The notes: generated by a model from the letters alone, not told the origin. A stretch of DNA of 24,000 nucleotides from Candidatus Hodarchaeum mangrovi (GCA_016839515.1 JAEOUE010000183.1:626-24625); one strand, 5' to 3'. Positions 1 through 17,348 are shown, counted from the stretch's first letter. Program-made: numbers and translations.

Positions 1-984
1 ACCAAAGCCGAATCCTGCGACTAAAAGGGGGATTGTCACGAATAATAGGTTTGTGATTAATGGTGTAGCGGTAATACCTATACCCACACAAGTTACCCCT
101 AAAATCATATTCATTCTATAGCCTATCAACCTAGCAATTCTCACTGTTAATAGACGACTAATTATTGCACAAAAGTCTCTCACGGCAAGGAGGCTACCTA
201 TTTCTAAAGAAGCCAATCCTAATCCCTTGAGAAATAAAGGATGAAATGAAACTACCACACCATAGCTTAATGACATGAGAAAAGATCCAATGGTTGCTAG
301 TTTTATGTTTCTTTTGCTTCGAAAAAGACAGATAGCCTTGGAATAACTCTCCAGAATTCCCTTTTTCTCATGAATGACTACTTTATTAAATTCTCGAACT
401 CGTGCTTTGCGATTCTCCTTTAAAAGAGGAAACGTTGAGAAAAATCCTACCATAGCGAGACATGTAAAAGCTAAAAAGACGGATTCATAACCTATTTGAT
501 CAATAAACCATCCAGCAATCGGTGGGCCAACTAACTGACCTAATCCTGTAACTGTTAAATATTGTCCCAATAATGTAGGTCGTTCACTGTCACTTCCCAT
601 TTCTGAGATATATGCAGGTTCTGTTACGCGAAATGATGCTGCTGTAATTCCCCAAAACATCTGTGCAGGTAGAAATAACAGAACTTGTTGTGTGATCATA
701 CTGATAAAGAATGTTACTCCTGATGCCAATCCAAGTACGAATGTTACTCCATAAAAGAGCTCCCAACCAAACCTATCAGCCCCTTCTCCAAGAGGTATCC
801 GAAATCCTGTTTGAATTATCATCCTTATGCTAACAATCAATCCGACTATAGCTGTTGTTGCTCCTAATGTGGTAGCTGCTAAAGGTATTGTGGGACTTAG
901 TAGACCCAACATAGTAGTATACAAAGTTCCAATCCAAATTATTAGCATAAGATCTTTATTCAATCTATATTATTACCTCTTTCA
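1..984 (-). CDS. MFS-family transporter, N-terminal ~328 codons (3' end runs off the left edge of the window)
   Basis: Not in the supplied ORF track. I reverse-complemented and translated 1-1023 by hand. The frame is stop-free from the in-frame TGA at 1026-1024 down to position 1. ATG at 984-982 gives MKEVIYRLNKDLMLIIWIGTLYTTMLGLLSPTIPLAATTLG...; an alternative ATG lies at 948-946. The product has successive hydrophobic helices, an MFS motif-A-like loop (GEGADRFGWE, i.e. G-x-x-x-D-R-x-G) and a basic central loop (KENRKARVREFNK). It is co-directional with the upstream dipeptidase genes, 66 nt after the stop of the first. Confidence 0.75.
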
Positions 985-1050: not shown

Positions 1051-2121
1051 TTAGCCTATTACTCTTTTCATGAGATGCATCGCATTTCCAGCTACGATTT
1101 TTTCTATCTCCTGGTCACTATAACCTCTAGAAACTAAACCACGGATGATATTTGGCCATTCCTCAGGACTCTCAATTCCTCTCATATACGGAGCATTTAA
1201 GGTTTGCCCTGTACGTTCCAAAAAGAAGATTGATTTAGCTGCTTGACGATGATATTCAACTTGATCCTCAAAAACATTATCTAATCCTATTGCACATTTA
1301 TCATTACCTATTAAATCAACAATATAGTCAATATGATTTAAGAGGTCATCAATACTTTGCACTGATTTATTGCTTAGCTGATTGGGAATAGCAGAGACTC
1401 CAGCAATCCCCTTTTTTTCAGCTAGAGCCATGAGCTCTTCGTCGGTCTTTAAGCGTTTACATTGAGGATTTAAGGCGCGTGCTCCCACATGATTGGCAAT
1501 TACTGGATCTTTGGAGACCTGAATTGTGTCAAGTGTTGTTTGGACTCCAACATGGGATAAATCAATTAGCATCCCAATCTTATTCATCTGTTCGACTAAA
1601 TTAATACCGAAATATGATAACCCTTCATTTGTTCTTTCACCACATCCATCGCCTGCATATGTCCGCGTATTGAATGTAAGCAGAGCCATCCTAATTCCAA
1701 GTCCATAGGCAACTTCTACATTTTCTAGATCTTTACCAAAAGTCTGAGGTTCAAGCTGAAACATTATAGCTATCTTCTTCTCCTTCTTAGCACGTCTAAA
1801 GTCGTCAGCTCTGAAAGCAACCATAAAATCTGGATGTTTTATTGCACGTTGCATTAGATATCCTAATTCGTTCATCGATTGCTGAAAGTTTTCGTGAATT
1901 CCTGCAATAGCCTCTACGAATCCAGTTACACCAGAATTCTTTATTCTGGGTACAATGAAGTCTTCATCAGGCAGGATGTGCGAATGAAGGTCAATTGTTA
2001 CTATTTTTTTGTGTAATTCCTCAGCCCGTTCTTCTTCTGCTTTATCAAGTTTAACTAAGCGTTCTTTCAGAGGAAGCTTCAAATATTCGTTTAATGGAAG
2101 CATATTATACATTCCTATCAA
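1051..2121 (-). CDS. M19 (renal/membrane dipeptidase family)-like metallohydrolase, paralogue A1
   Basis: Collinear by-eye match to human DPEP1 along the whole length. TIDLHSHIL aligns with IDGHNDLP. FQLEP aligns with the bridging Glu of GVEGG. GLSYFG..MNKIGMLIDLSHVG aligns with GLSPFG..LNRLGVLIDLAHVS. PVIANHVGAR aligns with PVIFSHSSAY. AIGLDNVF aligns with GFGGDFDG. GYSDQEIEKIVAGNAM aligns with NWTEAEVKGALADNLL. The track start is TTG 2121. ATG 2103 (MLPLNEYLKL, AGGA 9 nt upstream) fits the paralogue N-termini better. Confidence 0.85.
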   Translation of the reverse strand: MIGMYNMLPLNEYLKLPLKERLVKLDKAEEERAEELHKKIVTIDLHSHILPDEDFIVPRIKNSGVTGFVEAIAGIHENFQQSMNELGYLMQRAIKHPDFMVAFRADDFRRAKKEKKIAIMFQLEPQTFGKDLENVEVAYGLGIRMALLTFNTRTYAGDGCGERTNEGLSYFGINLVEQMNKIGMLIDLSHVGVQTTLDTIQVSKDPVIANHVGARALNPQCKRLKTDEELMALAEKKGIAGVSAIPNQLSNKSVQSIDDLLNHIDYIVDLIGNDKCAIGLDNVFEDQVEYHRQAAKSIFFLERTGQTLNAPYMRGIESPEEWPNIIRGLVSRGYSDQEIEKIVAGNAMHLMKRVIG

Positions 2122-2156
2122 TTTATATTGGGATAGGAGGAGAAAATAAATTCCTA

Positions 2157-3236
2157 CTACCCGATAACTTTTTCAATGATTTTTAGCGCGTTCCCCCCGA
2201 TTATTTTTTGAATCTCTTCATCAGAATATCCTTCTGAGACTAAACCACGAACTATATTTTTCCATTCATGTGGACCTTCTAAACCGAAGAGGAAATCACC
2301 TTTAAGCTGTATCCCAGATTTATCAAAATTCCTAGAAGCCGCATTTTTTCTATGACCAGCCACCTGATCACGAAATACGTTATCTAGACCAATAGCGACA
2401 TAATTGATACCGACTAGGTTTACACAGTGGTTAATATGTTTAAGATGGTCTTCGATTCCTTGATTAACATCGAAAGAGAGTTGATTAGGGATTCCACTTA
2501 TGCCAATTAACCCTTTTTTCTCTGCGATAGCCTGTAATTCCTCGTCTTCTCTTAAACGTTTACATGGTGGATTTAGAGCTCGTGCACCCGCATGATTAAA
2601 TACACAAGGGTCTTTTGAATAGTCAATAGCATCCAAGGATGTCTGTATTCCACAATGGCTCAAATCTATTAACATTCCAATTTTATTCATACGATCCACA
2701 ATTTCTAAACCAAAATAACTTAAGCCTATATTAGTTCTTTCAGCAATACCATCGCCAATATAATTTCTAGTATTGAAAGATAATAAAGCCATCCTTATCC
2801 CAAGTCCATATGCTATATCTACATTATCTAAGTTCTTTCCGAATGTATTGGGTTCTAATTGAAAAAGTACTGCCTGTTTCCCTTCTTCCTTTGCTTTCAG
2901 TATATCTTTAGCTTTATAAGCTGGCATCAGACTTGGTTCTTTCTCAGTGATAGCTAGATACCTGCCTAGAAGATTCATGGATTCAGAAAAATCCTCTGAA
3001 AGCGCTGGAACAGCTTCAAAACAGCCTTCAACGCCCATTTGATGAACTAGGTTCATTTTTTCCTCATTCCACTCGAAAATTACTGATCCATAGATATGTG
3101 TATGTAAATCAATTTTCAATGATCTTTTAAAAAGTTCCTCGGCTCGTTCAGCCTCTGATGGGCTCAATTTGATGTATTTTTCTTCTTGTGGAAGTTTTAG
3201 ATATTCTTCACGTGAAAAACCTCTGTTTGGCATCAA
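2157..3236 (-). CDS. M19-like metallohydrolase, paralogue B1
   Basis: Same M19 architecture: DLHTHI, FQLEP, LIDLSHCG, CVFNHAGAR, IGLDNVF, GYSDEEIQKIIGGNAL. Subtype-B markers: HTH, FEAVP, SHCGIQTSLDAI. The likely true start is ATG 3233, with GAGGT 8 nt upstream, rather than TTG 3236. Confidence 0.85.
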   Translation of the reverse strand: MMPNRGFSREEYLKLPQEEKYIKLSPSEAERAEELFKRSLKIDLHTHIYGSVIFEWNEEKMNLVHQMGVEGCFEAVPALSEDFSESMNLLGRYLAITEKEPSLMPAYKAKDILKAKEEGKQAVLFQLEPNTFGKNLDNVDIAYGLGIRMALLSFNTRNYIGDGIAERTNIGLSYFGLEIVDRMNKIGMLIDLSHCGIQTSLDAIDYSKDPCVFNHAGARALNPPCKRLREDEELQAIAEKKGLIGISGIPNQLSFDVNQGIEDHLKHINHCVNLVGINYVAIGLDNVFRDQVAGHRKNAASRNFDKSGIQLKGDFLFGLEGPHEWKNIVRGLVSEGYSDEEIQKIIGGNALKIIEKVIG

Positions 3237-3263
3237 TTTCTACCTCTTTTAAGTTCAAAAAGA

Positions 3264-4316
3264 TCAACCTATAACCCTTTCAATTATAGAAAGAGCATTT
3301 CCTGAGAGAATTTTTTCAATATTCTGATCACTGTATCCCCTTTGAACTAACCCCCGAGTGATATTAGCAAACTCCTCTGGATTTTCAATCCCATACATAT
3401 ACGGGGCATTTAATCCTTGTCCAATGTATGAAAGTTTAAAGATTTGTTTAGCTTGTTGACGATGGTAACCAACTTGGTCTCCGAATACATTATCAAGTCC
3501 AATAGCAACGTTATTAATACCAATCAGGTCAACCATATAATCAAGATGATTTAATAGGTCGTTTATCCCTTGTTCTTCTTCACTACTTAGTTGATTGGGA
3601 ATAGCAGAAACTCCTGCAATCCCACCTTTCTCAGCTATTGCTTTGAGTTCTTCATCAGTCTTTAACCGTTTACATTGAGGATGTAATGTGCGTGCTCCTA
3701 CATGGTTTGCAATAACTGGACTTTTAGATACTTCAACCGTATCCAGCGTAGTTTGGACACCTACATGCGAAAGATCGATCAAAATCCCAACCTTGTTCAT
3801 TCTATCAACCAAGTCTATACCAAAGTAAGACAATCCCTCATTGGTTCGCTCTCCACATCCATCACCTGCATAAGTTCGAGTGTTAAATGTAAGAAGAGCC
3901 ATTCTTACTCCAAATCCAAAAGCAAAATCTACATTGTCCAAGTTTTTACCAAATGTTTGAGGTTCTAATTGAAACATTACAGCCATTTTTCCCTCCTTTT
4001 TTGCTCGTTTGAAATCCTCCGCTCTCAAAGCGAGCATAAACTCTGGATGTTTATTCAATTTAGTTCTAAAAGACCCTAATATATTCATCGATTCTTGAAA
4101 ATCTTCAGTTACACCGGCAATTGCTTCAATCCAGCCGCAAACTCCTGAATTTTTGATCCGATCTAGGATAAAATACTTATCCATTAGAATATGAGAATGC
4201 ATATCTATTGAAATTAATTTTTTGTGTAATTCTTCGGCTCGTTCTTCCTCTACTTTGTCTAACTTAATAAAACGTTCTTTCAAGGGCAATTTCAAATATT
4301 CTTCTCTAGAAATCAA
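3264..4316 (-). CDS. M19-like metallohydrolase, paralogue A2
   Basis: Close paralogue of 1051-2121. Shared strings include EEERAEELHKK, HSHIL, MFQLEPQTFGK, RMALLTFNTRTYAGDGCGERTNEGLSYFG, LIDLSHVGVQTTLDT, PVIANHVGAR, PQCKRLKTDEEL and GIAGVSAIPNQLS. TTG start at 4316 with AAGGAGG about 9 nt upstream. Confidence 0.85.
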   Translation of the reverse strand: MISREEYLKLPLKERFIKLDKVEEERAEELHKKLISIDMHSHILMDKYFILDRIKNSGVCGWIEAIAGVTEDFQESMNILGSFRTKLNKHPEFMLALRAEDFKRAKKEGKMAVMFQLEPQTFGKNLDNVDFAFGFGVRMALLTFNTRTYAGDGCGERTNEGLSYFGIDLVDRMNKVGILIDLSHVGVQTTLDTVEVSKSPVIANHVGARTLHPQCKRLKTDEELKAIAEKGGIAGVSAIPNQLSSEEEQGINDLLNHLDYMVDLIGINNVAIGLDNVFGDQVGYHRQQAKQIFKLSYIGQGLNAPYMYGIENPEEFANITRGLVQRGYSDQNIEKILSGNALSIIERVIG

Positions 4317-4328
4317 AAATATTCCTCC

Positions 4329-5399
4329 TTAACCAACTACTTTCTCAAGTATTCGTAACGCATTTCCGCCAATTATTTTGTCTACCTCTTGGTCACTGTA
4401 TCCCCTCTTAATTAATCCCCTAATAATATTGGGCCAGTCACTCGGAGACTCTAGACCATAAATATAATCCGCTGCAAGGACTATCCCTGCACGCTCCAAG
4501 TTAACTGTTTTTTCAGCTGCCATTTTTCTATGGAAAGCTACTTGGTCATGAAATGTGTTATCTAAACCTATTCCTACATGATCAACTCCCACTAGATTCG
4601 CAATATATTCAATATGGTTTAAATGATCCTCAATACTCTGTTCGGGTTTGCTAGACAATTGGTTGGGAATAGCAGAGATACCAATCAGCCCACCCTTCTC
4701 TACCAATGCTTTTAATTCCTCATCGGTTCTTAATCGCCCAACTGGTTCATTTAAAGCTCGGGCTCCTGTATGATTGAACAGACATGGGTCTTTGGAATGG
4801 TCAATTGCGTCTAGTGCAGTTTGAACGCCACAATGGCTGAGATCAATCAATATTCCAGCGTTGTTCAAACGTTCTACTAACTCAAGGCCCAAGTAACTGA
4901 GTCCTGCATTGGTTTTTTCTCCACAACCGTCGCCAATGTATGTTCGTGTGTTAAAGGTAAGGAGAATCATTCTAAATCCTAGCCCATAGGCAACATCTAC
5001 CAGGTCGAGATTTCGTCTGCCACTCCATGGTTCCAGCTGATACAAAATAGCCTGTTTGTTTTCCTTTTTAGCCTTTTTGATGTCTGCAGCGGTAAAAGCA
5101 GACACTAATCCCGGTTCTTTCTCGACAATACTACGATAGCGTCCAATTATTGCTGTTGTCTCGGCAAAATCTTCATTTAAGCATGGAACAGCTTCAAAAC
5201 ATCCATCAATTCCAGAATTTTCGACTAATTTTCTAATATTCGCATTCCACTCGAAATGGATCGAACCAAATATGTGGGTATGCAAATCGACTTTAATACT
5301 CTTTGAGAAGAGTTCATCAGCTCTTTCTTTTTCAGAAGGACTGAGTTGAATAAATCTCTCTTCAGGACTAAGAGAGAGATACTTGTCTCTAGATATCAT
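4329..5399 (-). CDS. M19-like metallohydrolase, paralogue B2 (first gene of the minus-strand operon)
   Basis: Motifs DLHTHI, YQLEPWSGRRNLDL, LIDLSHCGVQTALDAI, CLFNHTGAR and IGLDNTF. ATG at 5399 with GAGGT 8 nt upstream. Only 12 nt separate it from the next gene. It is the closest relative of the plus-strand copy at 12025-13077. Confidence 0.88.
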   Translation of the reverse strand: MISRDKYLSLSPEERFIQLSPSEKERADELFSKSIKVDLHTHIFGSIHFEWNANIRKLVENSGIDGCFEAVPCLNEDFAETTAIIGRYRSIVEKEPGLVSAFTAADIKKAKKENKQAILYQLEPWSGRRNLDLVDVAYGLGFRMILLTFNTRTYIGDGCGEKTNAGLSYLGLELVERLNNAGILIDLSHCGVQTALDAIDHSKDPCLFNHTGARALNEPVGRLRTDEELKALVEKGGLIGISAIPNQLSSKPEQSIEDHLNHIEYIANLVGVDHVGIGLDNTFHDQVAFHRKMAAEKTVNLERAGIVLAADYIYGLESPSDWPNIIRGLIKRGYSDQEVDKIIGGNALRILEKVVG

Positions 5400-5602
5400 C
5401 CTTAAATACCTCTAATGTTCGATAATGTTGGCAAAATTTATTTTTTTTATTTTTTCTTAAATTTTTCCATTAATTACTTTATAAATCGAAAAGCCTTTAC
5501 GGAAAGTTTTTTACTTATAATGAAAATTAAATAACGTTCTCCCAATAATATCGATTTCTTTTGTTATGGAGGAATCACAAAAAATAAATTGGTGAAAACA
5601 AA
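5400..5602. promoter_or_regulatory. Divergent intergenic region, probable promoters for the dipeptidase operon (-) and the ABC importer (+)
   Basis: A 203-nt very AT-rich gap between divergently oriented first genes. It contains TTTATAAA (5478-5485) and TATAAT (5516-5521). GGTGA (5591-5595) lies 7 nt before the TTG start at 5603. No transcription start can be assigned from sequence alone. Confidence 0.4.
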
Positions 5603-7315
5603 TTGTTGTTCATAAAAAATAGAAAAAATAATCTATATCTAAAAATTGGAGTTTTGGCACTCCTTTTAGTCCTATCTTCGTTCTCAGCAATCCCTATCAG
5701 AGCTCAGGAAAAGTCACGATTTGAATTTAAGCTAATTTACGGTGCTGGACGTTATGCCATGGACAAACAGATAGTAGAAACTGTTCAATCCTTTTTGGCT
5801 GACATTGATGTCAAAATGACTATTGAATCTAGGGATTGGGCTTCCTTCTCTGCTGCTCAAAGAGAAAGTAACATAACAAAGTTAACGGAAGATTACCAAG
5901 CATGGTTCGTAGGTTTCGGGAACCCCTGGATGAATGCAGATGGTGCGCTTAAGAATTTCATCTCTCAAAGAGGATTAGAGCCTCTTTTCTACAATAATTC
6001 TTATTTCGATCAATTATTTGTCCAGTCTCGGAAAGAATCCGATGAAACAGAGCTAATGAAACTCTATAAAGAAATGAATGATATTGTTATGACAGATGCT
6101 CCATGGATTTTCCTTGCAATTGAACCTAATCTTCATGCTGCTCAAGGAGTCCAGGGCCTAACGACATGGCATGATGAGTCAGTAATCGTCTCTGATGCCT
6201 ATTCTACAACATCAAATGACACTTTAACTCTTTCTCTTGGAACAGAACCATCAAAGTTCGATCCACAACATACATCAGGAATGTCCAACCTTGGTATTAT
6301 TCGACTCGTAACAGAGACTCTTGTTAGTTTAGATCAGGAAACTGGGGATGTCGTACCAGTATTAGCAACTTCGTGGGAAACTGATAATGAAGCAGAGAAC
6401 TGGACGATCCATATTCGTCAAGGTGTAAAGTTTCATGACGGTAGTGAGTTAACAGCAGAAGATGTAAGATACACACTTTGGGATCGATTATCGTCTCCAG
6501 ATAGTGGTGCTTTAGCCCAAGCATCCTTCGGTCCTCCAAGTGGTCCTATAAAGAATATTACAGTTGTTGACACATATACAGTAAAAATCGAGACCATTGG
6601 ATTCGCAGCATTAATGCCTTTCTTCAATTATCAGCCCTCAGAGATTGTTTCGAAGGCAAAATGTTTAGAATTATATAGAGAAAATGAAACAGTGCCTGGA
6701 GAAGATTTCCAGACTGATCCTTCTGGTACGGGCCCATATAAGTTTGTCGATTGGGTTAAAGGGGATCATATTACATTGATACGGAATGAGAATTATTGGG
6801 GTGAAAAACCAGCTTTCCAGACAATTATCATGAAAAAGATTACAGACTCCACATCTCGAGTTTCTGCGTTACTTGCTGGTGATGTGAACTATATACATCA
6901 AGTCCCTACAACTTCCGTTGCTACATTAATAGCAGATCCTGATGTCTACCTTATCAAAGCCGCTGAAGTTCGTATGATGCATATTGGTTTGAATCTTGAT
7001 TTTGATATCTTCAAAAACAGGAAAGTAAGACAAGCTATAAACTATGCTGTTAATCAGACCAAAATGGTTGAAACAATTTACGAAGGTTACGGATCACCCA
7101 TGATAGATACTATGATGTCTCCCAGCTCTTACGGGGTTCAACAAGGTAATATTAGCTATTCACAAGACGTTGAAAAGGCTAAACAACTCCTAGATGAGGC
7201 TGGATATACCGTTCCTAAAGAATCTGTTCCTGGATTTGATTTTCAAATCATGTTGATCGGAGTGATCTTTGCTGCTGGCCTAGGAAAGCGATTCCATCGT
7301 AAGCTAAGGAAATAA
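5603..7315 (+). CDS. ABC transporter substrate-binding protein, family 5 (Dpp/Opp type), apparently circularly permuted, with an N-terminal signal peptide and a C-terminal TM anchor
   Basis: N-terminus is MLFIKNRKNNLYLKIGVLALLLVLSSFSAIPIRA|QE: a positive n-region, a hydrophobic core and an AxA-like cleavage site, with no lipobox Cys. Family-5 SBP motifs present: TLTLSLGTEPSKFDPQ, ATSWE..NWTIHIRQGVKFHDGSELTAEDV, GTGPYKFVDW, ENYWGEKP, VRQAINYAVN and EKAKQLLDEAGY. The usual C-terminal block (DWASF, FVGFGNPW, YNNSYFDQL, LYKEMNDIVMTDAPWIFLA) lies upstream of these motifs. The protein ends with FDFQIMLIGVIFAAGLGKRFHRKLRK, a hydrophobic stretch plus a basic tail. TTG start with GGTGA 7 nt upstream. 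Confidence 0.85.
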   Translation: MLFIKNRKNNLYLKIGVLALLLVLSSFSAIPIRAQEKSRFEFKLIYGAGRYAMDKQIVETVQSFLADIDVKMTIESRDWASFSAAQRESNITKLTEDYQAWFVGFGNPWMNADGALKNFISQRGLEPLFYNNSYFDQLFVQSRKESDETELMKLYKEMNDIVMTDAPWIFLAIEPNLHAAQGVQGLTTWHDESVIVSDAYSTTSNDTLTLSLGTEPSKFDPQHTSGMSNLGIIRLVTETLVSLDQETGDVVPVLATSWETDNEAENWTIHIRQGVKFHDGSELTAEDVRYTLWDRLSSPDSGALAQASFGPPSGPIKNITVVDTYTVKIETIGFAALMPFFNYQPSEIVSKAKCLELYRENETVPGEDFQTDPSGTGPYKFVDWVKGDHITLIRNENYWGEKPAFQTIIMKKITDSTSRVSALLAGDVNYIHQVPTTSVATLIADPDVYLIKAAEVRMMHIGLNLDFDIFKNRKVRQAINYAVNQTKMVETIYEGYGSPMIDTMMSPSSYGVQQGNISYSQDVEKAKQLLDEAGYTVPKESVPGFDFQIMLIGVIFAAGLGKRFHRKLRK

Positions 7316-7805: not shown

Positions 7806-8852
7806 ATGGATGAAAATAAGCCATTATTAAGGGTGAAAGATCTTTCCACGCATTTTTTCACATATACTGGAGTAGTTAAGGCACTAGACGGTATAAACTT
7901 AGAGATAATGGGAAAGAATGATTCACTAGGTCTTGTGGGGGAGACAGGTTGTGGTAAAAGCGTCACAGCGTTATCGATCTTACAGCTGATTCCAAGACCT
8001 CCAGGACGTATCGTTAATGGTGAAGTTTGGTTCAATGGTGAAGATCTATTGAAGAAAAATGAGAGGTACATGCAACGAGAAATAAGAGGCAAAAGGATAT
8101 CTATGATATTTCAAGAGCCAATGACATCACTTAATCCTGTTATTCGTATAATAGATCAAATCACAGAGGCTATCTTACTTCATCCAGAAATAAATGGAAA
8201 TGAAACACCTTCTTTGTCTAAATATGATGATATGCCCAAATCTGAACGTGAAAAGATTAAAAAAGAAGCTAAAAAACATGCTATTGAACTACTTGATCTG
8301 ACAGGCATCCCAGATCCTGAGGAGGTAGCAGAAAGATACCCACATCAATTAAGCGGAGGAATGCGACAACGTGTGATGATTTCAATAGCTCTAGCATGTA
8401 ACCCACAGCTTCTCATTGCTGATGAACCCACGACATCACTTGATGTTACGATTCAAGCTCAAATATTATCTTTAATTAAGAAATTAAGGAAAAAATTTGG
8501 AATATCACTATTGCTTATTACTCATCATTTAGGTTTAATTTCCGCAATGTGTAACCAAGTTGCAGTGATGTATGCAGGTACAATCGTTGAATATACAGAC
8601 CTTAGATCCCTCTTTAGAAATCCGATTCATCCTTACACAAAAGGTTTATTAAAGTGTATCCCACGATTAGGAGGAGAGAGAGGAATAAAACTTAATACAA
8701 TTCCTGGGATGGTACCAGATCTAATAAATCCTCCAACAGGATGTAGATTCCACCCTCGTTGCAAAGAGAGGGGTTCAGAATGCGGAAAAAGTAAACCTAA
8801 GTTTATCGAAATAGATAAAGGGCACTTTGTTGCCTGCAACAAATATCATTAG
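7806..8852 (+). CDS. Oligopeptide/dipeptide ABC transporter ATP-binding protein (OppD/DppD type)
   Basis: Walker A GETGCGKS, signature LSGGMRQR and Walker B LLIADEPTTSLD. The Opp/Dpp-specific C-terminal extension is present (HPYTKGLL ... GCRFHPRC). ATG start. Confidence 0.92.
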   Translation: MDENKPLLRVKDLSTHFFTYTGVVKALDGINLEIMGKNDSLGLVGETGCGKSVTALSILQLIPRPPGRIVNGEVWFNGEDLLKKNERYMQREIRGKRISMIFQEPMTSLNPVIRIIDQITEAILLHPEINGNETPSLSKYDDMPKSEREKIKKEAKKHAIELLDLTGIPDPEEVAERYPHQLSGGMRQRVMISIALACNPQLLIADEPTTSLDVTIQAQILSLIKKLRKKFGISLLLITHHLGLISAMCNQVAVMYAGTIVEYTDLRSLFRNPIHPYTKGLLKCIPRLGGERGIKLNTIPGMVPDLINPPTGCRFHPRCKERGSECGKSKPKFIEIDKGHFVACNKYH

Positions 8853-8920: not shown

Positions 8921-9901
8921 TTGCAAGAAATCTTATTACAGGTTAGTCATTTAAAAACCTATTTTCCAATCAGGGCAGGAATCTTAAAAAGAACAGTGGG
9001 CTGGGTAAAAGCAGTTGATGATGTCAGCTTTGACATCAAAAAAGGGGAGATCTTAGGATTAGTAGGGGAGTCAGGGTGTGGAAAAACAACGGTTGGTAGG
9101 GTTATTCTGATGTTAGAGAATCCAACATCAGGAGAAATTTTATTCAATGGAAAAGATATAACGAAAATGAAGAAAGACGCATTGAGAAAGCATAGACGAC
9201 AAATGATGATGGTTTTTCAAGATCCTTTTTCTTCATTGAATCCTCGAATGACAGTGAAAAGAATAGTAGGGGAACCACTTATCATTAATAAGTATTGTTC
9301 TAAGCATGAGAGCAAAAACAGAATTGTAGACCTATTAGGAAAAGTAGGTTTAAAGGAAGAGCACCTCAATCGCTTTCCTCATGAGTTTTCAGGAGGACAA
9401 CGTCAACGGATCTGTGTAGCACGTGCGCTTGCCTTAAATCCAAGTTTAATAGTTCTTGATGAACCAACTTCGGCACTAGATGTTTCAGTTCAATCCCAAG
9501 TCCTCAATTTGTTCAAAGAACTATTATCAGAGTTCGGTCTTTCTTACTTATTTATCTCTCATGATCTGGCAGTAATCAAATATATGAGTGATAGGATATG
9601 TGTAATGTATGTTGGTAAAATAGTAGAACAAGGTTATACAGAAACGATCTACCAAGAACCAGCACACCCCTATACAAAGGCATTAATGTCGGCAATTTTA
9701 GAACCAAACCCTGAATATGAACAAGAACCCATTATACTCAAGGGAGATGTACCTAGTTCATCAAATCCTCCTTTAGGATGTAGATTCCATCCTCGTTGTT
9801 GGCTAGCAAAACCTGTATGTAGTGAAAAAGAACCACCTTCTGTTAATGTAGGAAATAAACATTTTGCTTCTTGTTGGGCTTTAGAAAAAGATTGGGATTG
9901 A
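8921..9901 (+). CDS. Oligopeptide/dipeptide ABC transporter ATP-binding protein (OppF/DppF type)
   Basis: Walker A GESGCGKTT, signature FSGGQRQR and Walker B LIVLDEPTSALD. C-terminal HPYTKALM ... GCRFHPRC. TTG start with GGTG 7 nt upstream. Confidence 0.92.
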   Translation: MQEILLQVSHLKTYFPIRAGILKRTVGWVKAVDDVSFDIKKGEILGLVGESGCGKTTVGRVILMLENPTSGEILFNGKDITKMKKDALRKHRRQMMMVFQDPFSSLNPRMTVKRIVGEPLIINKYCSKHESKNRIVDLLGKVGLKEEHLNRFPHEFSGGQRQRICVARALALNPSLIVLDEPTSALDVSVQSQVLNLFKELLSEFGLSYLFISHDLAVIKYMSDRICVMYVGKIVEQGYTETIYQEPAHPYTKALMSAILEPNPEYEQEPIILKGDVPSSSNPPLGCRFHPRCWLAKPVCSEKEPPSVNVGNKHFASCWALEKDWD

Positions 9902-9958: not shown

Positions 9959-10876
9959 TTGATTGAGAAAAATAATGTCCTAGAAAAAAAACCGAAGACT
10001 TCAAGGTTACCTCTGACATTGTATAAATTTCAGAAGAATAGGCGCGCATTATTTGGATTTATTGTTCTTGTGATAATTTTTATTATTGCTGTTTTTGCTT
10101 TAGATCCTTGGGGACACCCTTTATTAGCACCCTATAATCCATATGGACATCTTCCAACCTCAGAACGATTAGATCGCAGAGCTGAAAAGCCTTCTGCGCA
10201 ACATCTCTTAGGACTCGATGAACTTGGAAGGGATCTCCTTAGCAGAATTATGGTTGGCTGTCGAATCTCGATTACAATTGGATTCGTTTCTGTTTCTATT
10301 GCTCTAATTTTTGGTATGTTTATTGGATCCATTTCTGGTTATTTTGGTAAGTGGGTTGATCATCTTCTAATGCGGATTATAGATATTATGATGGCGTTTC
10401 CTGCATTTCTATTAGCACTAATGATCATTGCAATCTTAGGCCCATCACTACAAAATGCAATGGTTGCTATTGGTATTGCTTTAATACCAGTGTATGCACG
10501 ATTAACTCGAGGGCAAGTTATTTCAATAAAAGAAAACGATTATGTTGAAGCAGCAAGGATGGTGGGAGCTAGAGACTGGAGGATTATTTTATTGCATATT
10601 TTACCTAATGCCACTGCTCCTCTTATCGTCCAATCAACCCTCAATTTTGCTAGTGCAATACTCTCAGCAGCAGCACTAGGTTATTTAGGCCTTGGAGCCC
10701 AACCACCTACACCAGAATGGGGGGTCATGTTAAGTGATGGAAGACTATATTTATTGGCAGGAGCAACCCATTTATCTTTGTTTCCTGGACTTGCGATTAT
10801 GATTACTGTACTAGCTTTCAACCTAGTCGGAGATGGCCTCAGAGATGCCTTCGATCCAAGAATGGTGAGTGAATAA
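9959..10876 (+). CDS. ABC transporter permease (DppC/OppC type)
   Basis: N-terminal TM helix followed by an extracytoplasmic loop with HLLGLDELGRDLLSR. EAA-loop region is YVEAARMVGARDWRIILLHILPNATAPLIV. C-terminal GDGLRDAFDPR. Multiple TM helices. TTG start. Confidence 0.9.
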   Translation: MIEKNNVLEKKPKTSRLPLTLYKFQKNRRALFGFIVLVIIFIIAVFALDPWGHPLLAPYNPYGHLPTSERLDRRAEKPSAQHLLGLDELGRDLLSRIMVGCRISITIGFVSVSIALIFGMFIGSISGYFGKWVDHLLMRIIDIMMAFPAFLLALMIIAILGPSLQNAMVAIGIALIPVYARLTRGQVISIKENDYVEAARMVGARDWRIILLHILPNATAPLIVQSTLNFASAILSAAALGYLGLGAQPPTPEWGVMLSDGRLYLLAGATHLSLFPGLAIMITVLAFNLVGDGLRDAFDPRMVSE

Positions 10877-11889
10877 TGTCATTTGTATCTTTTTTGATTA
10901 GGAGGCTACTTTTAGTAATTCCAGTTCTTTTAGCAGTTTCTTTCATTGTTTTCTTCATGATTCGATTAATTCCTGGAGATCCTGCCCTCCTTCTTGTTCC
11001 GGAAGATGCTCCACCAGAGCAAGTTGATTACCTTCGTGAAAGATGGGGATTAAATGATCCAATTCATGAGCAATTTTTAAGGTTCTTAGTAAATATCTTA
11101 AACGGGGATCTTGGAAAGTCAATTCGGACTGGCCGACCCGTTATTGAAGAAATCCTACCACGATTTACCAACACAATATTTTTGGCAAGTTCGGCCTGTT
11201 TAATAGCTATACTTGTCGGCGGATTTGCAGGGGTTATTTCTAGTGTAAAGCCTTACTCGAAAATAGACAACTTTGCAATGATAGGGTCAATGGTAGGTGT
11301 ATCTGCTCCAGCTTTCTGGCTTGGCCTGATGATGATGTGGATATTAGCTGTTGAGCTAAATTTACTCCCCGCGGTTGGTACTGGCAATTATACTCACCTA
11401 TTTTCTCTTATTCCAGGATTAATTTATCCTCTGGGTTCAACACTATCAGAATTTCTCGATGAGCTATTAAATTGCATCAAGCATCTAGTTATGCCAGCGG
11501 TCACTCTTTCAGCATTTCTAATGGCTGTTATTGCACGACAAACCCGTTCTTCTATGTTAGAGGTCTTGACTAGTGATTATATCAGAACGGCACGAGCAAA
11601 AGGAGCACCTAGACCACGAGTAATTGTTTATCATGCATTAAAGAATGCAATGATTCCGGTTCTTACAGTAGCAGGAGTTGCATTTGGTTCTATGTTAGGA
11701 GGTTCCATTATTGTAGAGAAGGTATTTGAGTACAATGGCTTGGGACAATATATGATAGATTCAATTCACACTAGAGACTATCCTGTTATACAAGCAGTGA
11801 TTCTTTGGTATGCTCTTATCTTCACTGTAGTTAATCTAATTGTAGATGTCATTTACGGATGGTTAGATCCCCGAATAGTCTATGAGTAA
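10876..11889 (+). CDS. ABC transporter permease (DppB/OppB type)
   Basis: N-terminus is FLIRRLLLVIPVLLAVSFIVFFMIRLIPGDP. The conserved loop is YIRTARAKGAPRPRVIVYHALKNAMIPVLTV, and the C-terminus is DVIYGWLDPRI. The ATG overlaps the upstream stop by one base (TAATG at 10874-10878), which implies translational coupling. Confidence 0.9.
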   Translation: MSFVSFLIRRLLLVIPVLLAVSFIVFFMIRLIPGDPALLLVPEDAPPEQVDYLRERWGLNDPIHEQFLRFLVNILNGDLGKSIRTGRPVIEEILPRFTNTIFLASSACLIAILVGGFAGVISSVKPYSKIDNFAMIGSMVGVSAPAFWLGLMMMWILAVELNLLPAVGTGNYTHLFSLIPGLIYPLGSTLSEFLDELLNCIKHLVMPAVTLSAFLMAVIARQTRSSMLEVLTSDYIRTARAKGAPRPRVIVYHALKNAMIPVLTVAGVAFGSMLGGSIIVEKVFEYNGLGQYMIDSIHTRDYPVIQAVILWYALIFTVVNLIVDVIYGWLDPRIVYE

Positions 11890-12024: not shown

Positions 12025-13077
12025 TTGCAGCTCTCTCGTGAGGAGAGATTCATTAAATTAGATTCAGTGGAAATCGAACGTGTAAAAGAGATTTTCGAGA
12101 AAAATTATACTATCGATATGCATACTCACTTTTTTGGGAGCATTCACTTTAAATGGACACCAGAAATTAGTGAGAGAGTTAAACAGTCTGGGATTAATGC
12201 AGGCTTTGAAGCTGTGCCATGCCTGGCGGAAGATTTTACGGAAACTACGGCCATCATTGGCCAATATCGTAGCATCGTTGAGAAAGAACCAGGTTTAGTC
12301 TCAGCATTTACGGCCGCAGACATCAGAAAAGCGAAGAAGGAAGGCATACAGGCTATCTTATATCAGCTTGAGCCGTGGAGCGGCAGACGAAATCTCGACC
12401 TGGTAGATGTAGCCTATGGCTTAGGATTCCGAATGATCCTTCTCACATTTAATACTCGAACCTACATAGGCGACGGGTGTGCGGAAAAAACCAATGCAGG
12501 ACTTAGCTATTTGGGGTTGGAATTAGTAGAACGCCTGAATAGCGCTGGCATCCTGATTGATCTGAGTCATTGTGGGATCCAGACCTCACTGGATGCCATT
12601 GAGCATTCCAAAGATCCCTGCCTGTTTAATCATACTGGAGCCCGTGCTTTAAACCCACAAGTAAAACGATTAAGAACCGATGAGGAGCTACAAGCTATTA
12701 CTGAGAAGGGTGGGATGATTGGCATCTCTGCTATCCCTAATCAATTGTCTAGCAAACTCGAACAGAGTATTGAGGATCATTTGAATCATATTGATTATGT
12801 TGCCGATTTAGTAGGTACAAACCACATGATGATTGGCTTAGATAATGTATTCGATGACCAAGTTCAAAATCATAAAGAAATGGATAAAAAAAGTAAAGGT
12901 CTTAATCGGAAACGAGACGGTATGGTTTTAGTAGCACCATACATCTATGGATTAGAAGCACCAGATGAATGGGAAAATATAGTAAGAGGATTGGTAAAAC
13001 ATGGATATTCAGATTCAGACATCAAGAAAATCATTGGTGAAAACGCTCTTAAAATTATCAAACAAGTTGTAGGATAG
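12025..13077 (+). CDS. M19-like metallohydrolase, paralogue B3 (inverted relative to the other four)
   Basis: Motifs DMHTHF, YQLEPWSGRRNLDL, LIDLSHCGIQTSLDAI, CLFNHTGAR and IGLDNVF. It is near-identical to 4329-5399 over the central barrel. The start is uncertain. TTG 12025 is the first canonical start, but paralogue-conserved residues (..PRNEYL) continue in frame upstream to the stop at 11995-11997. Confidence 0.85.
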   Translation: MQLSREERFIKLDSVEIERVKEIFEKNYTIDMHTHFFGSIHFKWTPEISERVKQSGINAGFEAVPCLAEDFTETTAIIGQYRSIVEKEPGLVSAFTAADIRKAKKEGIQAILYQLEPWSGRRNLDLVDVAYGLGFRMILLTFNTRTYIGDGCAEKTNAGLSYLGLELVERLNSAGILIDLSHCGIQTSLDAIEHSKDPCLFNHTGARALNPQVKRLRTDEELQAITEKGGMIGISAIPNQLSSKLEQSIEDHLNHIDYVADLVGTNHMMIGLDNVFDDQVQNHKEMDKKSKGLNRKRDGMVLVAPYIYGLEAPDEWENIVRGLVKHGYSDSDIKKIIGENALKIIKQVVG

Positions 13078-13103
13078 AAAAAGCTGAAAGATGGGATGAG
13101 ATA

Positions 13104-14519
13104 ATGATTGAGGATAAAAATGAAATTACATTAGGGGAGAAATTTGCACGATATGTAATTGAAACAGACTTTGATAACCTACCACAATCTGCTGTAAAAA
13201 GAGCTAAAAGTATTGTTTTTGATTTTGCTGGTATCGCATTGTCAGGATATGGGACTCATCATCCAATGATTAAGAGCCTTATAAGTTACGCCCGTGCAAA
13301 AGTAGCCAAAGAAGAAGCAACGATTCTAGGTGCAGGTACACAAACCAGTGCAGAAGATGCAGCTTTTACAAATAGTGTACTGTCTAACTTTCTAGATTCA
13401 AGCGATGGACACTATATGGGAGGGCATATCAATGATCGTGTAGTTCCAGTAGCTCTTTCAGTAGCAGAAAGTGTGGCAGCAAGTGGGAAAGATTTTCTAA
13501 CAGCGGTTGTTCTCGGTTATGAGGCATATATTAGATTATCTTATGTCCTATTTCGTTCAGCTGAAGCTGCATCGACAAAGAGGAGCCCTATGTTTGTCGT
13601 ACTTTCTACTCTTTCGAGTGTTATTCCTGCGGGGAAACTTCTGGGGTTGAATGCTGAACAAATTTCGGGTGCAATGGGATTAGCTGCATCAGCACAGATC
13701 GTAGGTTCACAATATACAATAAGTGGAGGAAATGAGAAGGATCTTGTCTGTGGACAAGAATCTAGACGAGCTGTAATGGCAGCATTCCTAGCAAAATATG
13801 GAATCACAGGCTCTAAAGATATATTAGAAGGAAAAAGAGCTGTTGGTAAAGTTATTTCAGATAATTGCAATTGGGATGAGTTCTTGGAGAACTTAGGTTC
13901 ACCTGAAAGTTTCAAAATAATGGAAACTTATTTTAAACCTTGGCCAGCCTGTAAATTTTTGCACTCGACTATTGAAGCAGCTTTGAACTTGGTCCATGAT
14001 AATCAGGTTAATTCTGAGCAAATTAATGAAGTAATAATCAAGTTGAACTCTGATTCTGCAAGAAGGTCTGCATTCAAGTTTTACTCTCATGTTAATGCGA
14101 TATTCAGTCATCCATATCAAGCAGTAACAGTTTTAGTAGATGGTAAACCTGATCTTCCTATTAAATGGTCAGAAAAGTTGCAAGATCCTAGGATTGTAGC
14201 ACTTTTAAAGAAAACAAAAGTAGCAGTGGACGAAGAATTCGAAAAAATGTATTCAACAAGGACAATAGAGGGGGGTACTTGGCCTTCGACAGTAGGTGTA
14301 AAACTAAAGGATGGACGATATTTGGAGTCAACAGTAATGTCCCCAAAGGGAGATCCCACAGTTCCCATGTCTGATGATGACCTTAAAATAAAAATTGCGA
14401 GCTTATCCCGAGGAGTTTTAGATTACAATCGGATTGAGAAGATATACGAGATAATTCAAGACCTAGAACAAGTTAAGGATATAAGATCCTTTACAAAGAA
14501 CTTAGTTTTACCAACCTAG
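13104..14519 (+). CDS. MmgE/PrpD-family protein (2-methylcitrate dehydratase superfamily; substrate unknown)
   Basis: Characteristic N-terminus: LGEKFARYVIETDFDNLPQSAVKRAKSIVFDFAGIALSG. The 471-aa length and the mid-protein ETYFKPWPACKFLHSTIEAAL block are both typical of the family. It begins 26 nt after the preceding gene. Confidence 0.82.
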   Translation: MIEDKNEITLGEKFARYVIETDFDNLPQSAVKRAKSIVFDFAGIALSGYGTHHPMIKSLISYARAKVAKEEATILGAGTQTSAEDAAFTNSVLSNFLDSSDGHYMGGHINDRVVPVALSVAESVAASGKDFLTAVVLGYEAYIRLSYVLFRSAEAASTKRSPMFVVLSTLSSVIPAGKLLGLNAEQISGAMGLAASAQIVGSQYTISGGNEKDLVCGQESRRAVMAAFLAKYGITGSKDILEGKRAVGKVISDNCNWDEFLENLGSPESFKIMETYFKPWPACKFLHSTIEAALNLVHDNQVNSEQINEVIIKLNSDSARRSAFKFYSHVNAIFSHPYQAVTVLVDGKPDLPIKWSEKLQDPRIVALLKKTKVAVDEEFEKMYSTRTIEGGTWPSTVGVKLKDGRYLESTVMSPKGDPTVPMSDDDLKIKIASLSRGVLDYNRIEKIYEIIQDLEQVKDIRSFTKNLVLPT

Positions 14520-14532
14520 GAGATAAAAAGAA

Positions 14533-15492
14533 TTGAAAACGCTAGTCGAAATTTTCGAATCAAACCTGAAACAGTGTGCTAATCTTCAGCCCAACGAATC
14601 AGTTTTAGTAATGTCGGATTTTGAACAAACCTCTGAGATTCCCTTATCCATAGTTAAGGCTATAGAAAAATTGCAGGCTAGACCATTATTGATTATAATG
14701 GAAAAAAATCTCTTGAAAGAGAAAGGGATATCGAAGTCTTATCAACAAGTAATGAATGAAGCTGATTTAATTGTAATATGTACTTCTGATTATTTCCCTG
14801 GAGAATCTCGCGTCATCGCTACACAAGCAGGTTCTCGAATTCTTTCAATGGTTAAAGCCGATGAGAATATGATTAGACGTTGTATAGATATCGATTATAA
14901 TGAACTCTCAAAGCTTACACGGAAAGTAGCTGATAGGTTCTCTGAAGCAAAAGAAATTAACATCAAGAGCGACTCTGGAACAGACATTTATTTTAGACCG
15001 AGTGGCAATAAAGCCTTTTATTTTGATGGCCTCTGTAGAGAAAAGGGAAAAATCACATCACATCCTTCAGGTGTAGTTGCTGTCGCTTTAGAAGAGAATC
15101 AAGCAGAAGGAACGTGGGTTATAAATGCTAGCGCTGCTAAACTAGGTTTAGTTGATCCACCAATAACTATTGAGGTGACTGAAGGTGTAGCAAAAATAGT
15201 AAGCAATTCAGAGCAAGCTGATCAATTCCAAAAGATTTTATCTGCTGGTGATGATAATTCATGGAAAATTTGTGAGGTTGGTTGTGGAACAAATGCTAGA
15301 GCTACCTACATTGGGGAATTGATTGAAGATGAAAGAGTACAAGGATCTGCTCATATAGGATTAGGAGGTAATACTCACTTTGGGGGAAAGATACAAAGCA
15401 TTTCTCATATTGATACATCTACGAGGAATCCTACTGTCATATTGGATGGATTCGCGATTATTTCCAAAGGAAATTTAAATCGCGAATTATGA
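14533..15492 (+). CDS. M29/AmpS (aminopeptidase T)-NicX superfamily metallohydrolase-like protein
   Basis: The C-terminal metal-site pattern is typical of the thermophilic-metalloprotease fold: CEVGCGTNARA...EDERVQGSAHIGLGGN...SISHIDTS (E, H and H-x-D). At 319 aa it is shorter than classical AmpS (~410 aa) and closer to NicX-sized members. TTG start with AGGAGA 9 nt upstream. Confidence 0.6.
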   Translation: MKTLVEIFESNLKQCANLQPNESVLVMSDFEQTSEIPLSIVKAIEKLQARPLLIIMEKNLLKEKGISKSYQQVMNEADLIVICTSDYFPGESRVIATQAGSRILSMVKADENMIRRCIDIDYNELSKLTRKVADRFSEAKEINIKSDSGTDIYFRPSGNKAFYFDGLCREKGKITSHPSGVVAVALEENQAEGTWVINASAAKLGLVDPPITIEVTEGVAKIVSNSEQADQFQKILSAGDDNSWKICEVGCGTNARATYIGELIEDERVQGSAHIGLGGNTHFGGKIQSISHIDTSTRNPTVILDGFAIISKGNLNREL

Positions 15493-15518: not shown

Positions 15519-15932
15519 TTAAAGTCTTAGTGTCACAACTTTCGAAGGTTTTAATTGTATTAATATCAGTATTTTACCAGTTGGATCACCCTGTTGAGGA
15601 TATTTTTTCCCTCTAATTGAATAATACTTCAATATATTTTCCTTATTTTCAATTAGAGTCGTTTTTCCCTTAATCATGCAGAATTTGAGTTGACTCCAAT
15701 CTTCATCATAATAATCCACCAGAATGGCTGCTTCTGGATTTCTCCGAAGATTTCTCGCAGTTTTTGTCTCAGGTCTTGTTAATATATACACCATTTCATC
15801 TTGAATCCAATAACAGAATGGAGCAATACAAGGTGAACCATTTTTATCTACTGATGCAATTCGTAATAACCTTCCTTCTTCAAGGAATTTTTTTACATTA
15901 CTACTTATTTCAAGCATTTTAGATTTCTCCAA
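15519..15932 (-). CDS. Pyridoxamine 5'-phosphate oxidase-like (FMN/F420-binding split-barrel) family protein
   Basis: Family pattern: LLRIASVDKNGSPCIAPFCYWIQDEMVYILTRPETKTARNLRRNPEAAILVD. ATG 15917 (MLEISSNV...), with GGAGA 8 nt upstream, is a more likely start than the track's TTG 15932. Confidence 0.75.
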   Translation of the reverse strand: MEKSKMLEISSNVKKFLEEGRLLRIASVDKNGSPCIAPFCYWIQDEMVYILTRPETKTARNLRRNPEAAILVDYYDEDWSQLKFCMIKGKTTLIENKENILKYYSIRGKKYPQQGDPTGKILILIQLKPSKVVTLRL

Positions 15933-16184: not shown

Positions 16185-17348
16185 TTGACACATGACGTAT
16201 TTTTTTCCCCTGCATGGTTATCTAAGCGGGATGCAAGCGATAGAAGTGGTAGTATTATCCAAAAAATACGAAAGATCTTTCAGAATGCTGAATTTTCTCA
16301 AAAAATCAGTAAAGGAGACCTGGTTTGCATCAAAACCAATTTTGGAGATCCTGGAAACACATATGTCATACGGCCAGTCGTGTATAGAACCATTATCGAA
16401 ATCATTCGCAAAGCAGGGGGGACACCTTTCCTTGCAGAAACTACAGGTCATGGATATATGAATCATAAGAGGTCTGCAGCTCATTACATTGACTCTGCAA
16501 CTTGGCATGGATTAACTATTGGCTCTTTAAGAGCACCCTTAATAATTTTAGATGGTTTTTGGGGAGTAGATGGAGTAGAAATTGAGATCCCAAATCATAA
16601 CGTCCTCAAAAAAGCTTGGGTTGCCCGAGGGCTTGTTGGAATAGATCATGTGGTTAGTGTATCCCATTTCAAAGGACACTCGCCCTATACACGTGGTCAA
16701 TCTATCGCTGCTTCTCTGAAAAATCTAGGTATAGGATGCACTACGAAAACTGGGAAGTATATGGCCCACTTTGATCCTCCTCTTATTGTAATAGAAGAGA
16801 AATGTGATGGTTGTAAGAAATGTCTCAGTAAATGCCCTGTTCCTAGTGCAATTAATGTTTCAAATGGAAAGGCCAAGATCAACAAAGAATTTTGTCTGCT
16901 TTGCGGAAATTGCAAGAGTTTATGCCCTCTAAAAGCAATAGAGCCTTCTGGAAAACATTCCGAAGAACTCCTCCAGAAATTTATTGTTGATTTAACTAAA
17001 GCTACTTTGAAAGTGGTAGGAAAAGAAAATTTCACTTGTTTAAACTCAGCTTATGATATTGTAACTGGATGTGATTGTAGATCAATCAATAGCGTTCCTA
17101 TCGTACCTAATGTAGGATTTATATTATCTAAAGATCCTGTTGCTGCAGATAGAGCGACATTAGATCTCGTCAACGAAACTTCAGGGATACCTGGTACTGA
17201 AGCAGAGCAACTTGTTTGTGTAGCCCCTGGTGAGGAAAAATTCAAAACTAGTCGTTTATTCGAATTTTGTGAAGCTGCAGGGCTTGGTTCGGGAGAATAT
17301 AAACTTATTAAGGCTGTACCAAAAGAAACTCCTCCTCTCCGACTTTGA
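16185..17348 (+). CDS. DUF362 domain protein with an inserted 2x[4Fe-4S] ferredoxin module
   Basis: DUF362-like N-terminus: DVFFSP...ISKGDLVCIKTNFGDPGN...RPVVYRTIIEIIRKAGGTPFLAETT. Two CxxCxxCxxxCP motifs are present: CDGCKKCLSKCP and CLLCGNCKSLCP. TTG start. Confidence 0.8.
   Translation: MTHDVFFSPAWLSKRDASDRSGSIIQKIRKIFQNAEFSQKISKGDLVCIKTNFGDPGNTYVIRPVVYRTIIEIIRKAGGTPFLAETTGHGYMNHKRSAAHYIDSATWHGLTIGSLRAPLIILDGFWGVDGVEIEIPNHNVLKKAWVARGLVGIDHVVSVSHFKGHSPYTRGQSIAASLKNLGIGCTTKTGKYMAHFDPPLIVIEEKCDGCKKCLSKCPVPSAINVSNGKAKINKEFCLLCGNCKSLCPLKAIEPSGKHSEELLQKFIVDLTKATLKVVGKENFTCLNSAYDIVTGCDCRSINSVPIVPNVGFILSKDPVAADRATLDLVNETSGIPGTEAEQLVCVAPGEEKFKTSRLFEFCEAAGLGSGEYKLIKAVPKETPPLRL

Follow-up and report, generated by a model that had tools for sequence, protein, structure and literature searches.

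Near the start of a 24,000-nt stretch of DNA from Candidatus Hodarchaeum mangrovi (GCA_016839515.1 JAEOUE010000183.1:626-24625; from here: the window, with coordinates counted from its start), four genes for amidohydrolases resembling renal dipeptidase (peptidase family M19) follow each other and alternate between two sequence types, A and B. What is such an alternating array good for, and how did it arise? A preliminary description of the sequence proposed that a two-gene A+B unit was duplicated as a block, and raised the possibility that A and B form heteromers or have two sequential, distinct specificities. Peptides and amino acids are believed to be the main food of Asgard archaea, yet the enzymes that use them are annotated by family name only. 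Here we report that A and B are two old paralogue lineages that recur side by side in Asgard archaea and bacteria. On balance, we consider it probable that they are two non-redundant hydrolases acting on imported free-carboxylate compounds, and that the pair was amplified in Asgard archaea.

The four tandem, co-directional open reading frames (ORFs) were recovered exactly at 1051-2121 (A1), 2157-3236 (B1), 3264-4316 (A2) and 4329-5399 (B2), separated by 35, 27 and 12 nt, and all of them match Pfam PF01244 (Peptidase_M19). They are located on the minus strand, and their order on the coding strand is B2-A2-B1-A1. The first gene, B2, encodes a B-type M19-like amidohydrolase of 356 aa (PF01244 E 4.5e-66), which scores 688 bits with a B-specific hidden Markov model (HMM) and 508 bits with an A-specific one. 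It is followed by the A-type amidohydrolase A2 (350 aa; E 2.1e-67; A HMM 688, B HMM 516 bits), the B-type B1 (359 aa; E 3.6e-60; B HMM 665, A HMM 515 bits) and, as the last gene of the array, the A-type A1 (356 aa; E 1.6e-67; A HMM 684, B HMM 506 bits). A fifth paralogue, the B-type B3 at 12025-13077 (plus strand; E 4.1e-60), is located directly upstream of an MmgE/PrpD-like gene. A1 probably starts at the ATG at 2112, giving 353 aa; a database product (P0001) that is 100% identical to A1 has the same length of 353 aa. The start of B1 is probably the ATG at 3233. With these two probable starts, the gap of 35 nt may be one of 44 nt. A2 is in the same reading frame as B2, with the stop and four codons in between (GGAGGAATATTT before the TTG start); the sequence between the two genes is TAAGGAGGAATATTTTTG, and a Shine-Dalgarno-like GGAGG precedes A2. 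The four genes would constitute one operon, transcribed in the order B2-A2-B1-A1 from the minus strand. Its promoter is presumed to lie, together with that of the divergently oriented binding-protein gene, in the AT-rich intergenic region at 5400-5602, a function suggested by the sequence only. An assembly artefact was rejected as an explanation, since no two copies exceed the range of 53-75% identity and four other contigs carry this four-gene array as well.

Pairwise protein identities bear out the two subtypes: A1 and A2 share 73.1% of their residues, B1 and B2 63.0% and B2 and B3 74.5%, against 53-57% between A and B. The sequence motifs listed for the subtypes in the preliminary description are all present in the translations; most are specific to the Asgard copies rather than to the whole A and B clades, and only one alignment column discriminates the entire clades at a level of at least 90%. 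A search of NCBIfam assigned neither A nor B to a specific family. Two A and two B genes in four slots alternate by chance in one third of cases, so that the alternation gains significance only through its recurrence elsewhere.

Such recurrence was found. Family members on 157 fetched loci were classified with the A- and B-specific HMMs, and adjacent pairs were present in 36 loci, comprising 25 A>B and 15 B>A pairs (40 A/B in total), nine A>A and no B>B pairs. The A-B adjacency was encountered on some 30 further contigs of Asgard, Anaerolineae, Thermotogae or metagenome origin. The order B-A-B-A of the window is shared by loci L001, L004 and L078 and partially by L009; L003 carries A-B-A-B-A, L002 A-B-A-A-B-A and the Thermotogae locus L008 B-A-B. 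Nine bacterial-type contigs possess a simple A-B pair, four possess A-A'-B, in which A' is a second A-type copy, and one possesses A-A-A-B. The A:B ratios vary (1:1, 2:1, 3:1, 1:2, 2:3 and 4:2), and there is no fixed 1:1 gene stoichiometry. Unpartnered copies exist as well, namely B3 in the window and a lone A-type gene in L005. The spacing between A and B ranges from overlap up to 341 nt, with 259-341 nt reached in Anaerolineae-type loci. The lone A-type gene of L005 (770-1879), which has a His-x-Leu (HxL) motif at its metal site, lies between a DUF362/ferredoxin gene and a gene for a metallo-beta-lactamase-fold protein. In the window, the corresponding position is held by a molybdopterin-oxidoreductase-domain gene (17626-18438; compare 16185-19240); within this neighbourhood, the family is mobile.

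The closest relatives of the window proteins (72-92% identical) stem from metagenome-assembled genomes (MAGs) labelled Thor-, Heimdall-, Hod-, Hermod- or Promethearchaeota, all of them Asgard archaea. Homologues at 62-66% identity are present in MAGs of Anaerolineae and Thermotogae, and a further one, labelled Armatimonadota, is 57% identical. In a neighbour-joining tree (Kimura distances, 81 sequences, 100 bootstraps), clades A and B obtained bootstrap values of 100% and 99%, and each splits into a bacterial-type subclade (A 99, B 97) and an Asgard subclade (100 in both). Because either clade contains both subclades, the A/B duplication predates the Asgard/bacterial split. The A and B trees mirror each other, as expected of a pair that was inherited or transferred together. 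A1, A2, B1 and B2 each have a one-to-one orthologue of about 86% identity in L001, L004, L009 and L078, and for B1 this grouping has a bootstrap value of 100. B3, the sister of B2 (bootstrap 100), has its orthologue in L102, and L004 contains a fragment. Branching among the Asgard A subgroups is weak in this distance-based tree (27-64% bootstrap). Singleton genes scoring equally with the A and B models branch outside A+B (83-88) and may represent the unduplicated state. These singletons (L096-L100 and L104, all metagenome contigs) have other surroundings, which in some cases include a homologue of the window's molybdopterin-oxidoreductase-domain gene. The more distant relatives that were fetched share 28-39% identity, come in many cases from Paraburkholderia and Caballeronia and are present once per locus. 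Hence, A and B are each monophyletic and ancient, and neighbouring genes are never each other's closest relatives. As the adjacency also recurs in other genomes, we regard the A+B two-gene unit as real.

The proposal that this unit was duplicated as a block in a single event fared less well. The distances between window and L001 orthologues are equal for all four array genes (0.14-0.16), whereas the paralogue distances, measured in three genomes, amount to 0.28-0.33 for A1-A2 and 0.49-0.50 for B1-B2, a difference of about 1.5 times; the B1-B2 distance is nearly as deep as that between Asgard and bacterial B proteins. Under equal rates, equal orthologue distances combined with unequal paralogue distances do not support one simultaneous B-A block duplication. 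B3 is a separate duplicate of B2, and related arrays vary in order, which makes a single event unlikely. Either separate duplication events or a later homogenisation of the A copies would account for these sequence distances. By best identity, with margins of only 1-5%, A2-B1-A1 as a core corresponds in order to genes one to three of L003, with the B2-like gene located elsewhere. Moreover, B2 and B3 form a mosaic, with 77-91% nucleotide identity over approximately codons 75-270 and 53-58% at both ends, and third codon positions behave likewise. This pattern points to gene conversion involving the array and the copy next to the PrpD-like gene. Judging from the compared gene orders, the arrays have clearly been remodelled several times, yet without giving rise to B-B adjacency.

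All five paralogues pass the Pfam cut-off for PF01244 with ease (204-228 bits against 26; E 1e-60 to 1e-67), while the N-terminal 36-61 positions of the profile are unmatched. AlphaFold2 models of B2 and A2 are (beta/alpha)8 barrels with predicted local distance difference test (pLDDT) values of 95.3 and 95.7, respectively. The top 20 Foldseek matches of B2 are all M19-fold structures (E 1e-19 to 3e-29), with 2i5g as the best one (template modelling score, TM, 0.82/0.89). By sequence, too, 2i5g is the closest solved relative (E 1e-33 to 1e-47), followed by Sco3058, GliJ and DPEP1. The catalytic residues H46, E124, H190, H211, R223 and D281 do not vary among the 40 A-type, 30 B-type and six unsplit relatives. 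In the alignment to Sco3058 and GliJ, Glu124 corresponds to the bridging Glu, and His190 and His211 to the two His ligands after strands 5 and 6. The likewise fully conserved Arg223 aligns with the Arg of the Sco3058 motif hpRN, the substrate-carboxylate Arg, and Asp281 in strand 8, also 100% conserved, with the Asp in GIGGD of Sco3058 and with Asp304 in GIGSD of GliJ. In Sco3058, functional roles are ascribed to His150, Arg223 and Asp320. The zinc ligands of the renal dipeptidase hrDP, a binuclear enzyme, are His20, Asp22, Glu125, His198 and His219 (PMC9305348). The first motif differs from this canonical His-x-Asp (HxD), as it reads His46-x-His48 (HxH) in each of the five copies of the window and in every B-type sequence. 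The alignments indicate that HxH is a variant ligand set and not a lost site, and that the binuclear-type set is complete in the A/B family. A second substitution concerns the LTHN motif, whose His aligns to Phe150 (LTFN) in all the window copies, in 32 of the 40 A sequences and in all 30 B sequences; the replaced residue, His152 in DPEP1 and His150 in Sco3058, is presumably the transition-state-stabilising His.

In a library of 1.84 billion representatives, most of the nearest sequences, which we take to be 2i5g-like, have Gln in place of the bridging Glu and lack HxH (QHHRD in 97 of 132). Since the ligand set of the A/B family is complete, we regard it as a distinct M19 subfamily. The site has changed further in some additional A copies. 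The bacterial A' copies in second position (L081 3432-4586, L082 1609-2700, L089 1622-2728, L093 398-1489, L094 360-2686 and L085 4723-5826) form a subclade of their own with His-x-Cys (HxC) and Leu at the position of Phe150, hence a changed metal site, and HxL replaces HxH in an Asgard A subgroup comprising L002_11102 and the L005 gene. These altered sites point to functional diversification of the copies. The array genes are thus predicted to encode cytoplasmic metallo-amidohydrolases of the renal-dipeptidase (M19) fold, with presumably dipeptidase-type chemistry.

Compared with the human renal dipeptidase DPEP1 and Sco3058 of Streptomyces coelicolor (MEROPS M19; 1itq, 3id7), the A/B proteins have the (beta/alpha)8 fold (Foldseek TM 0.76-0.77) and the PF01244 match in common, and the bridging Glu, both His ligands, the strand-8 Asp and an Arg matching that of hpRN in Sco3058 are found at aligned positions. 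They differ in HxH for HxD, in Phe for the LTHN His, in an identity of only 22-24%, in about 35 extra N-terminal helical residues outside the Pfam profile with no signal peptide or anchor, and in the existence of two fixed paralogue types inside a conserved module. The Pseudomonas aeruginosa 'amidohydrolase' 2i5g, a structural genomics entry and the closest solved structure by sequence and fold, likewise has an aromatic residue for the LTHN His, but it is only 29% identical and has Leu where the first His of HxH aligns, whereas the ligand set of A/B is complete. GliJ (5lwz; D38H variant 5lx4) is, according to the titles of its Protein Data Bank (PDB) entries, an M19-fold Cys-Gly dipeptidase that performs one defined step of the multi-enzyme gliotoxin pathway (TM 0.79). 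In contrast to the A/B family it is fungal, has HxD and is a single copy (23% identity), and HxH occurs in it only as the engineered D38H mutant.

The array could simply be an amplification of dipeptidase dosage in a peptide-fermenting archaeon, with redundant copies and a meaningless alternation. The chance level of the alternation in the window mentioned above fits this idea, as do the variation of copy number and order between related genomes and the possible gene conversion between B2 and B3. The copies are old, however, with 53-75% identity, and have one-to-one orthologues, against which the ratio of nonsynonymous to synonymous substitution rates (dN/dS) is 0.04 for B2, 0.06 for A2, 0.05 for B1 and 0.06-0.08 for A1; all five copies fall between 0.04 and 0.08, with dS near saturation. 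Each copy in the window is under strong purifying selection. In addition, the A/B split is older than that between the Asgard and bacterial sequences, both types are retained together in most loci, and 40 A/B pairs stand against zero B-B pairs. We therefore judge mere redundancy to be very unlikely. A model in which one of the two types is a pseudo-enzyme partner was ruled out as well, the ligands all being invariant and dN/dS being 0.04-0.08.

More has to be said about an obligate A/B heteromer, for instance a heterodimer derived from an ancestral M19 homodimer, in which case the alternation would reflect co-duplicated subunit genes. Paralogues of homomers often retain cross-interaction, and adjacent paralogue pairs forming heteromeric peptidases are known from the bacterial M16B pairs and the mixed TET aminopeptidase complexes. 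In the M16B pairs, one subunit is catalytically dead. The side-by-side location of paralogous peptidase genes is similar here, but A and B are both catalytically complete, and their stoichiometry is variable. The starting point of such a scenario is given by the renal dipeptidase, which is dimeric (PMC9305348), and the tiny intergenic gaps, with the GGAGG between B2 and A2, are in line with it, as is the observation that A has B for a neighbour in almost all loci and that B never borders on another B. A natural fusion of two M19 domains was detected in the distant canonical HxD subfamily: P0266, with 710 aa, has an N-terminal hydrophobic, signal-peptide-like segment followed by two complete canonical HxD M19 domains in tandem. 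It was the one two-domain protein in a profile search of the 1.84 billion representatives, among the best hits of which no A-B fusion was found, and A-B fusions were equally missing among the best 120 matches in each of two word-index searches (lengths 308-386 aa). The variable A:B ratios, the lack of an adjacent partner for B3 and for the A gene of L005, the gaps of up to 259-341 nt in Anaerolineae-type loci and the full catalytic sites in both types argue against an obligate complex, too. In a mirror-tree analysis of 12 loci, a weak test that is confounded by A paralogy, the correlation r between A and B was 0.68-0.83 and that between B and the PrpD-like protein 0.91-0.92; the partial correlation of A and B given PrpD dropped to 0.00-0.16, while that of B and PrpD given A was 0.74-0.82. 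This test, with its limited power, gave no signal of A-B-specific co-evolution. The heteromer suggested in the preliminary description thus lacks support from the fusion searches, the copy ratios and the mirror-tree, and we consider it unlikely. The other half of that suggestion, two specificities or sequential steps, fits better because the copies are catalytically complete, under purifying selection and in fixed order inside a multi-enzyme module.

This module is conserved in its gene order across Anaerolineae, Thermotogae, metagenome contigs and Asgard archaea. In bacteria, a family-5 binding protein, in some loci preceded by an Lrp/AsnC regulator, is followed by two permeases, an M29-like enzyme and, in many loci, an M20 peptidase; next come A, in some cases with A' behind it, and B, and then a flavodoxin-like gene (sometimes), the MmgE/PrpD-like gene and often an epimerase/dehydratase of the short-chain dehydrogenase (SDR) type. 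In the Asgard loci, the importer with two added ATPase genes, and then the PrpD-like gene, is transcribed divergently from the A/B array. Downstream of the array follows a major facilitator superfamily (MFS) transporter gene, and a DJ-1/PfpI gene is also present in five of seven Asgard loci. In the window, the partial MFS gene is located downstream of A1 at 1-963 (minus strand; PF07690 E 2.3e-29), and a homologue follows the last A gene in six of six other Asgard arrays. On the other side of the array, the gene for a family-5 solute-binding protein of an Opp/Dpp-type importer (5603-7315, plus strand; PF00496) has homologues adjoining A/B genes in 10 loci. Also on the plus strand are two Opp/Dpp-type ABC ATPase genes (7806-8852 and 8921-9901; ABC_tran plus oligo_HPY), found beside the arrays in Asgard loci only, and two ABC permease genes, one OppC-like (9959-10876; BPD_transp_1 with OppC_N) and one OppB-like (10876-11889; BPD_transp_1 with BPD_transp_1_N), with homologues in 15 and 12 A/B loci, respectively. 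B3 and the genes for the MmgE/PrpD-family protein (13104-14519, plus strand; PF03972 and PF19305) and the M29-like/NicX-like metalloenzyme (14533-15492, plus strand; PDB 7cn3, E 7e-10) complete the set. The MmgE/PrpD-family gene is the most constant neighbour of B-type genes, with homologues in 18 A/B loci; homologues of the M29-like gene occur in 14 A/B loci, usually upstream of A. The stretch B3-PrpD-like-M29-like (12025-15492) preserves the ancestral order of B followed by PrpD, which recurs across related loci. An Lrp/AsnC regulator was detected in the window and in five bacterial loci, with a Pfam assignment for the window gene and one bacterial member.

Several further observations concern the module genes. 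The bacterial versions in L006, L008, L084 and L087 have no ABC ATPase genes beside the permeases, while all Asgard versions carry two. The solute-binding protein encoded at 5603-7315 appears circularly permuted, as positions 2-282 of the SBP_bac_5 profile match residues 250-539 and positions 289-363 match residues 41-122; it ends in a hydrophobic, basic tail resembling a C-terminal membrane anchor. Its bacterial homologues in the same module have the normal domain order, and homologues of the same length are present in L001-L004. Immediately downstream of the module, a gene for a PNPOx-like flavoprotein (15519-15932, minus strand) and one for a DUF362 protein into which a 2x[4Fe-4S] ferredoxin domain is inserted (16185-17348, plus strand) are both conserved together with the module in L102.

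The neighbouring genes allow for a module that does not act on peptides, in which the M29/NicX-like enzyme opens or trims a nitrogen-containing compound, C-N bonds are then hydrolysed in two successive steps by A and B, and the MmgE/PrpD-like enzyme converts the unsaturated or branched polycarboxylate that results, in a layout analogous to the lower nicotinate pathway. The sole PDB match of the ORF at 14533-15492 is indeed NicX, a 2,5-dihydroxypyridine dioxygenase, and cis-aconitate decarboxylase and IDS epimerase are the PDB entries closest to the PrpD-like protein (E 1e-22), which scores far below the equivalog cut-offs for true PrpD. B and the PrpD-like protein are also the tightest pair in the mirror-tree, the scores of the binding protein as a nickel, opine or glutathione binder are about equal, and the equivalent of His152 is Phe. 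On the other hand, the NicX-like protein has bacterial homologues that score above the Pfam cut-off for Peptidase_M29, an M20 peptidase belongs to the bacterial module, and the transporter bears the hallmarks of the Opp/Dpp type. Since the host lineages are anaerobes, a route through a dioxygenase is unlikely. Taken together, we hold such a pathway to be quite unlikely. A further possibility is an undescribed catabolic pathway, horizontally transferred between Asgard archaea and sediment bacteria (Anaerolineae, Thermotogae), in which A and B are two subunits or obligatorily coupled steps and the HxH M19 pair, the M29-like and the MmgE/PrpD-like enzyme act on an unusual imported compound. Candidates for this compound would be D-amino-acid-containing or cell-wall-derived peptides or an amide-linked polycarboxylate; we regard this version as doubtful.

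Our preferred reading, two non-redundant hydrolases, can be formulated as follows. A and B are ancient paralogue lineages with an ancestral state of one A followed by one B inside a peptide-utilisation module, which comprised an Opp/Dpp-type ABC importer, an M29-like enzyme, often an M20 peptidase, A, B, an MmgE/PrpD-like protein and often a short-chain dehydrogenase/epimerase. The same two types occur side by side in the module of several bacterial groups, which makes it probable that both are needed. In Asgard archaea, the pair would have been amplified through several duplications and rearrangements into alternating arrays of four to six genes, with the further copy B3 retaining the ancestral place beside the PrpD-like gene. 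A and B may have different substrate preferences and act, in parallel or sequentially, on imported dipeptide-like compounds with a free carboxylate, and the extra Asgard copies would widen the substrate range.

Several points weigh against this reading, among them the residual probability of a heteromer. The Phe at the position of the LTHN His means that the chemistry may not be classical dipeptide hydrolysis. Positions that diverge between A and B are not enriched near the C-termini of the active-site strands (7 of 28, with 25% expected; p 0.56, by a crude strand-end measure). Together with the single discriminating column, this lack of enrichment leaves a difference in specificity between A and B as something that we can only infer. 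Finally, in the literature searched, no description of the A/B family or its substrate was found, nor anything relevant on the module, on Asgard M19 enzymes, on M19 heterodimers or on 2i5g. The idea that the subtype motifs mark the active site was dropped, as the divergent positions show no enrichment at the catalytic face.

In conclusion, this analysis defines a subfamily of the renal-dipeptidase fold with an HxH metal motif, represented by two paralogue types inside a module common to bacteria and Asgard archaea, and the pairing is older and wider than the window alone suggests. One A, one B, one M29-like and one PrpD-like protein constitute a testable unit, which can serve for substrate discovery, for the question of whether homodimer paralogues become heteromers and for the tracing of inter-domain transfer. 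If A and B are ordinary dipeptidases with different preferences, the array would be a routine gene-family expansion; if an A/B complex exists, it would be the first heteromeric M19 enzyme.

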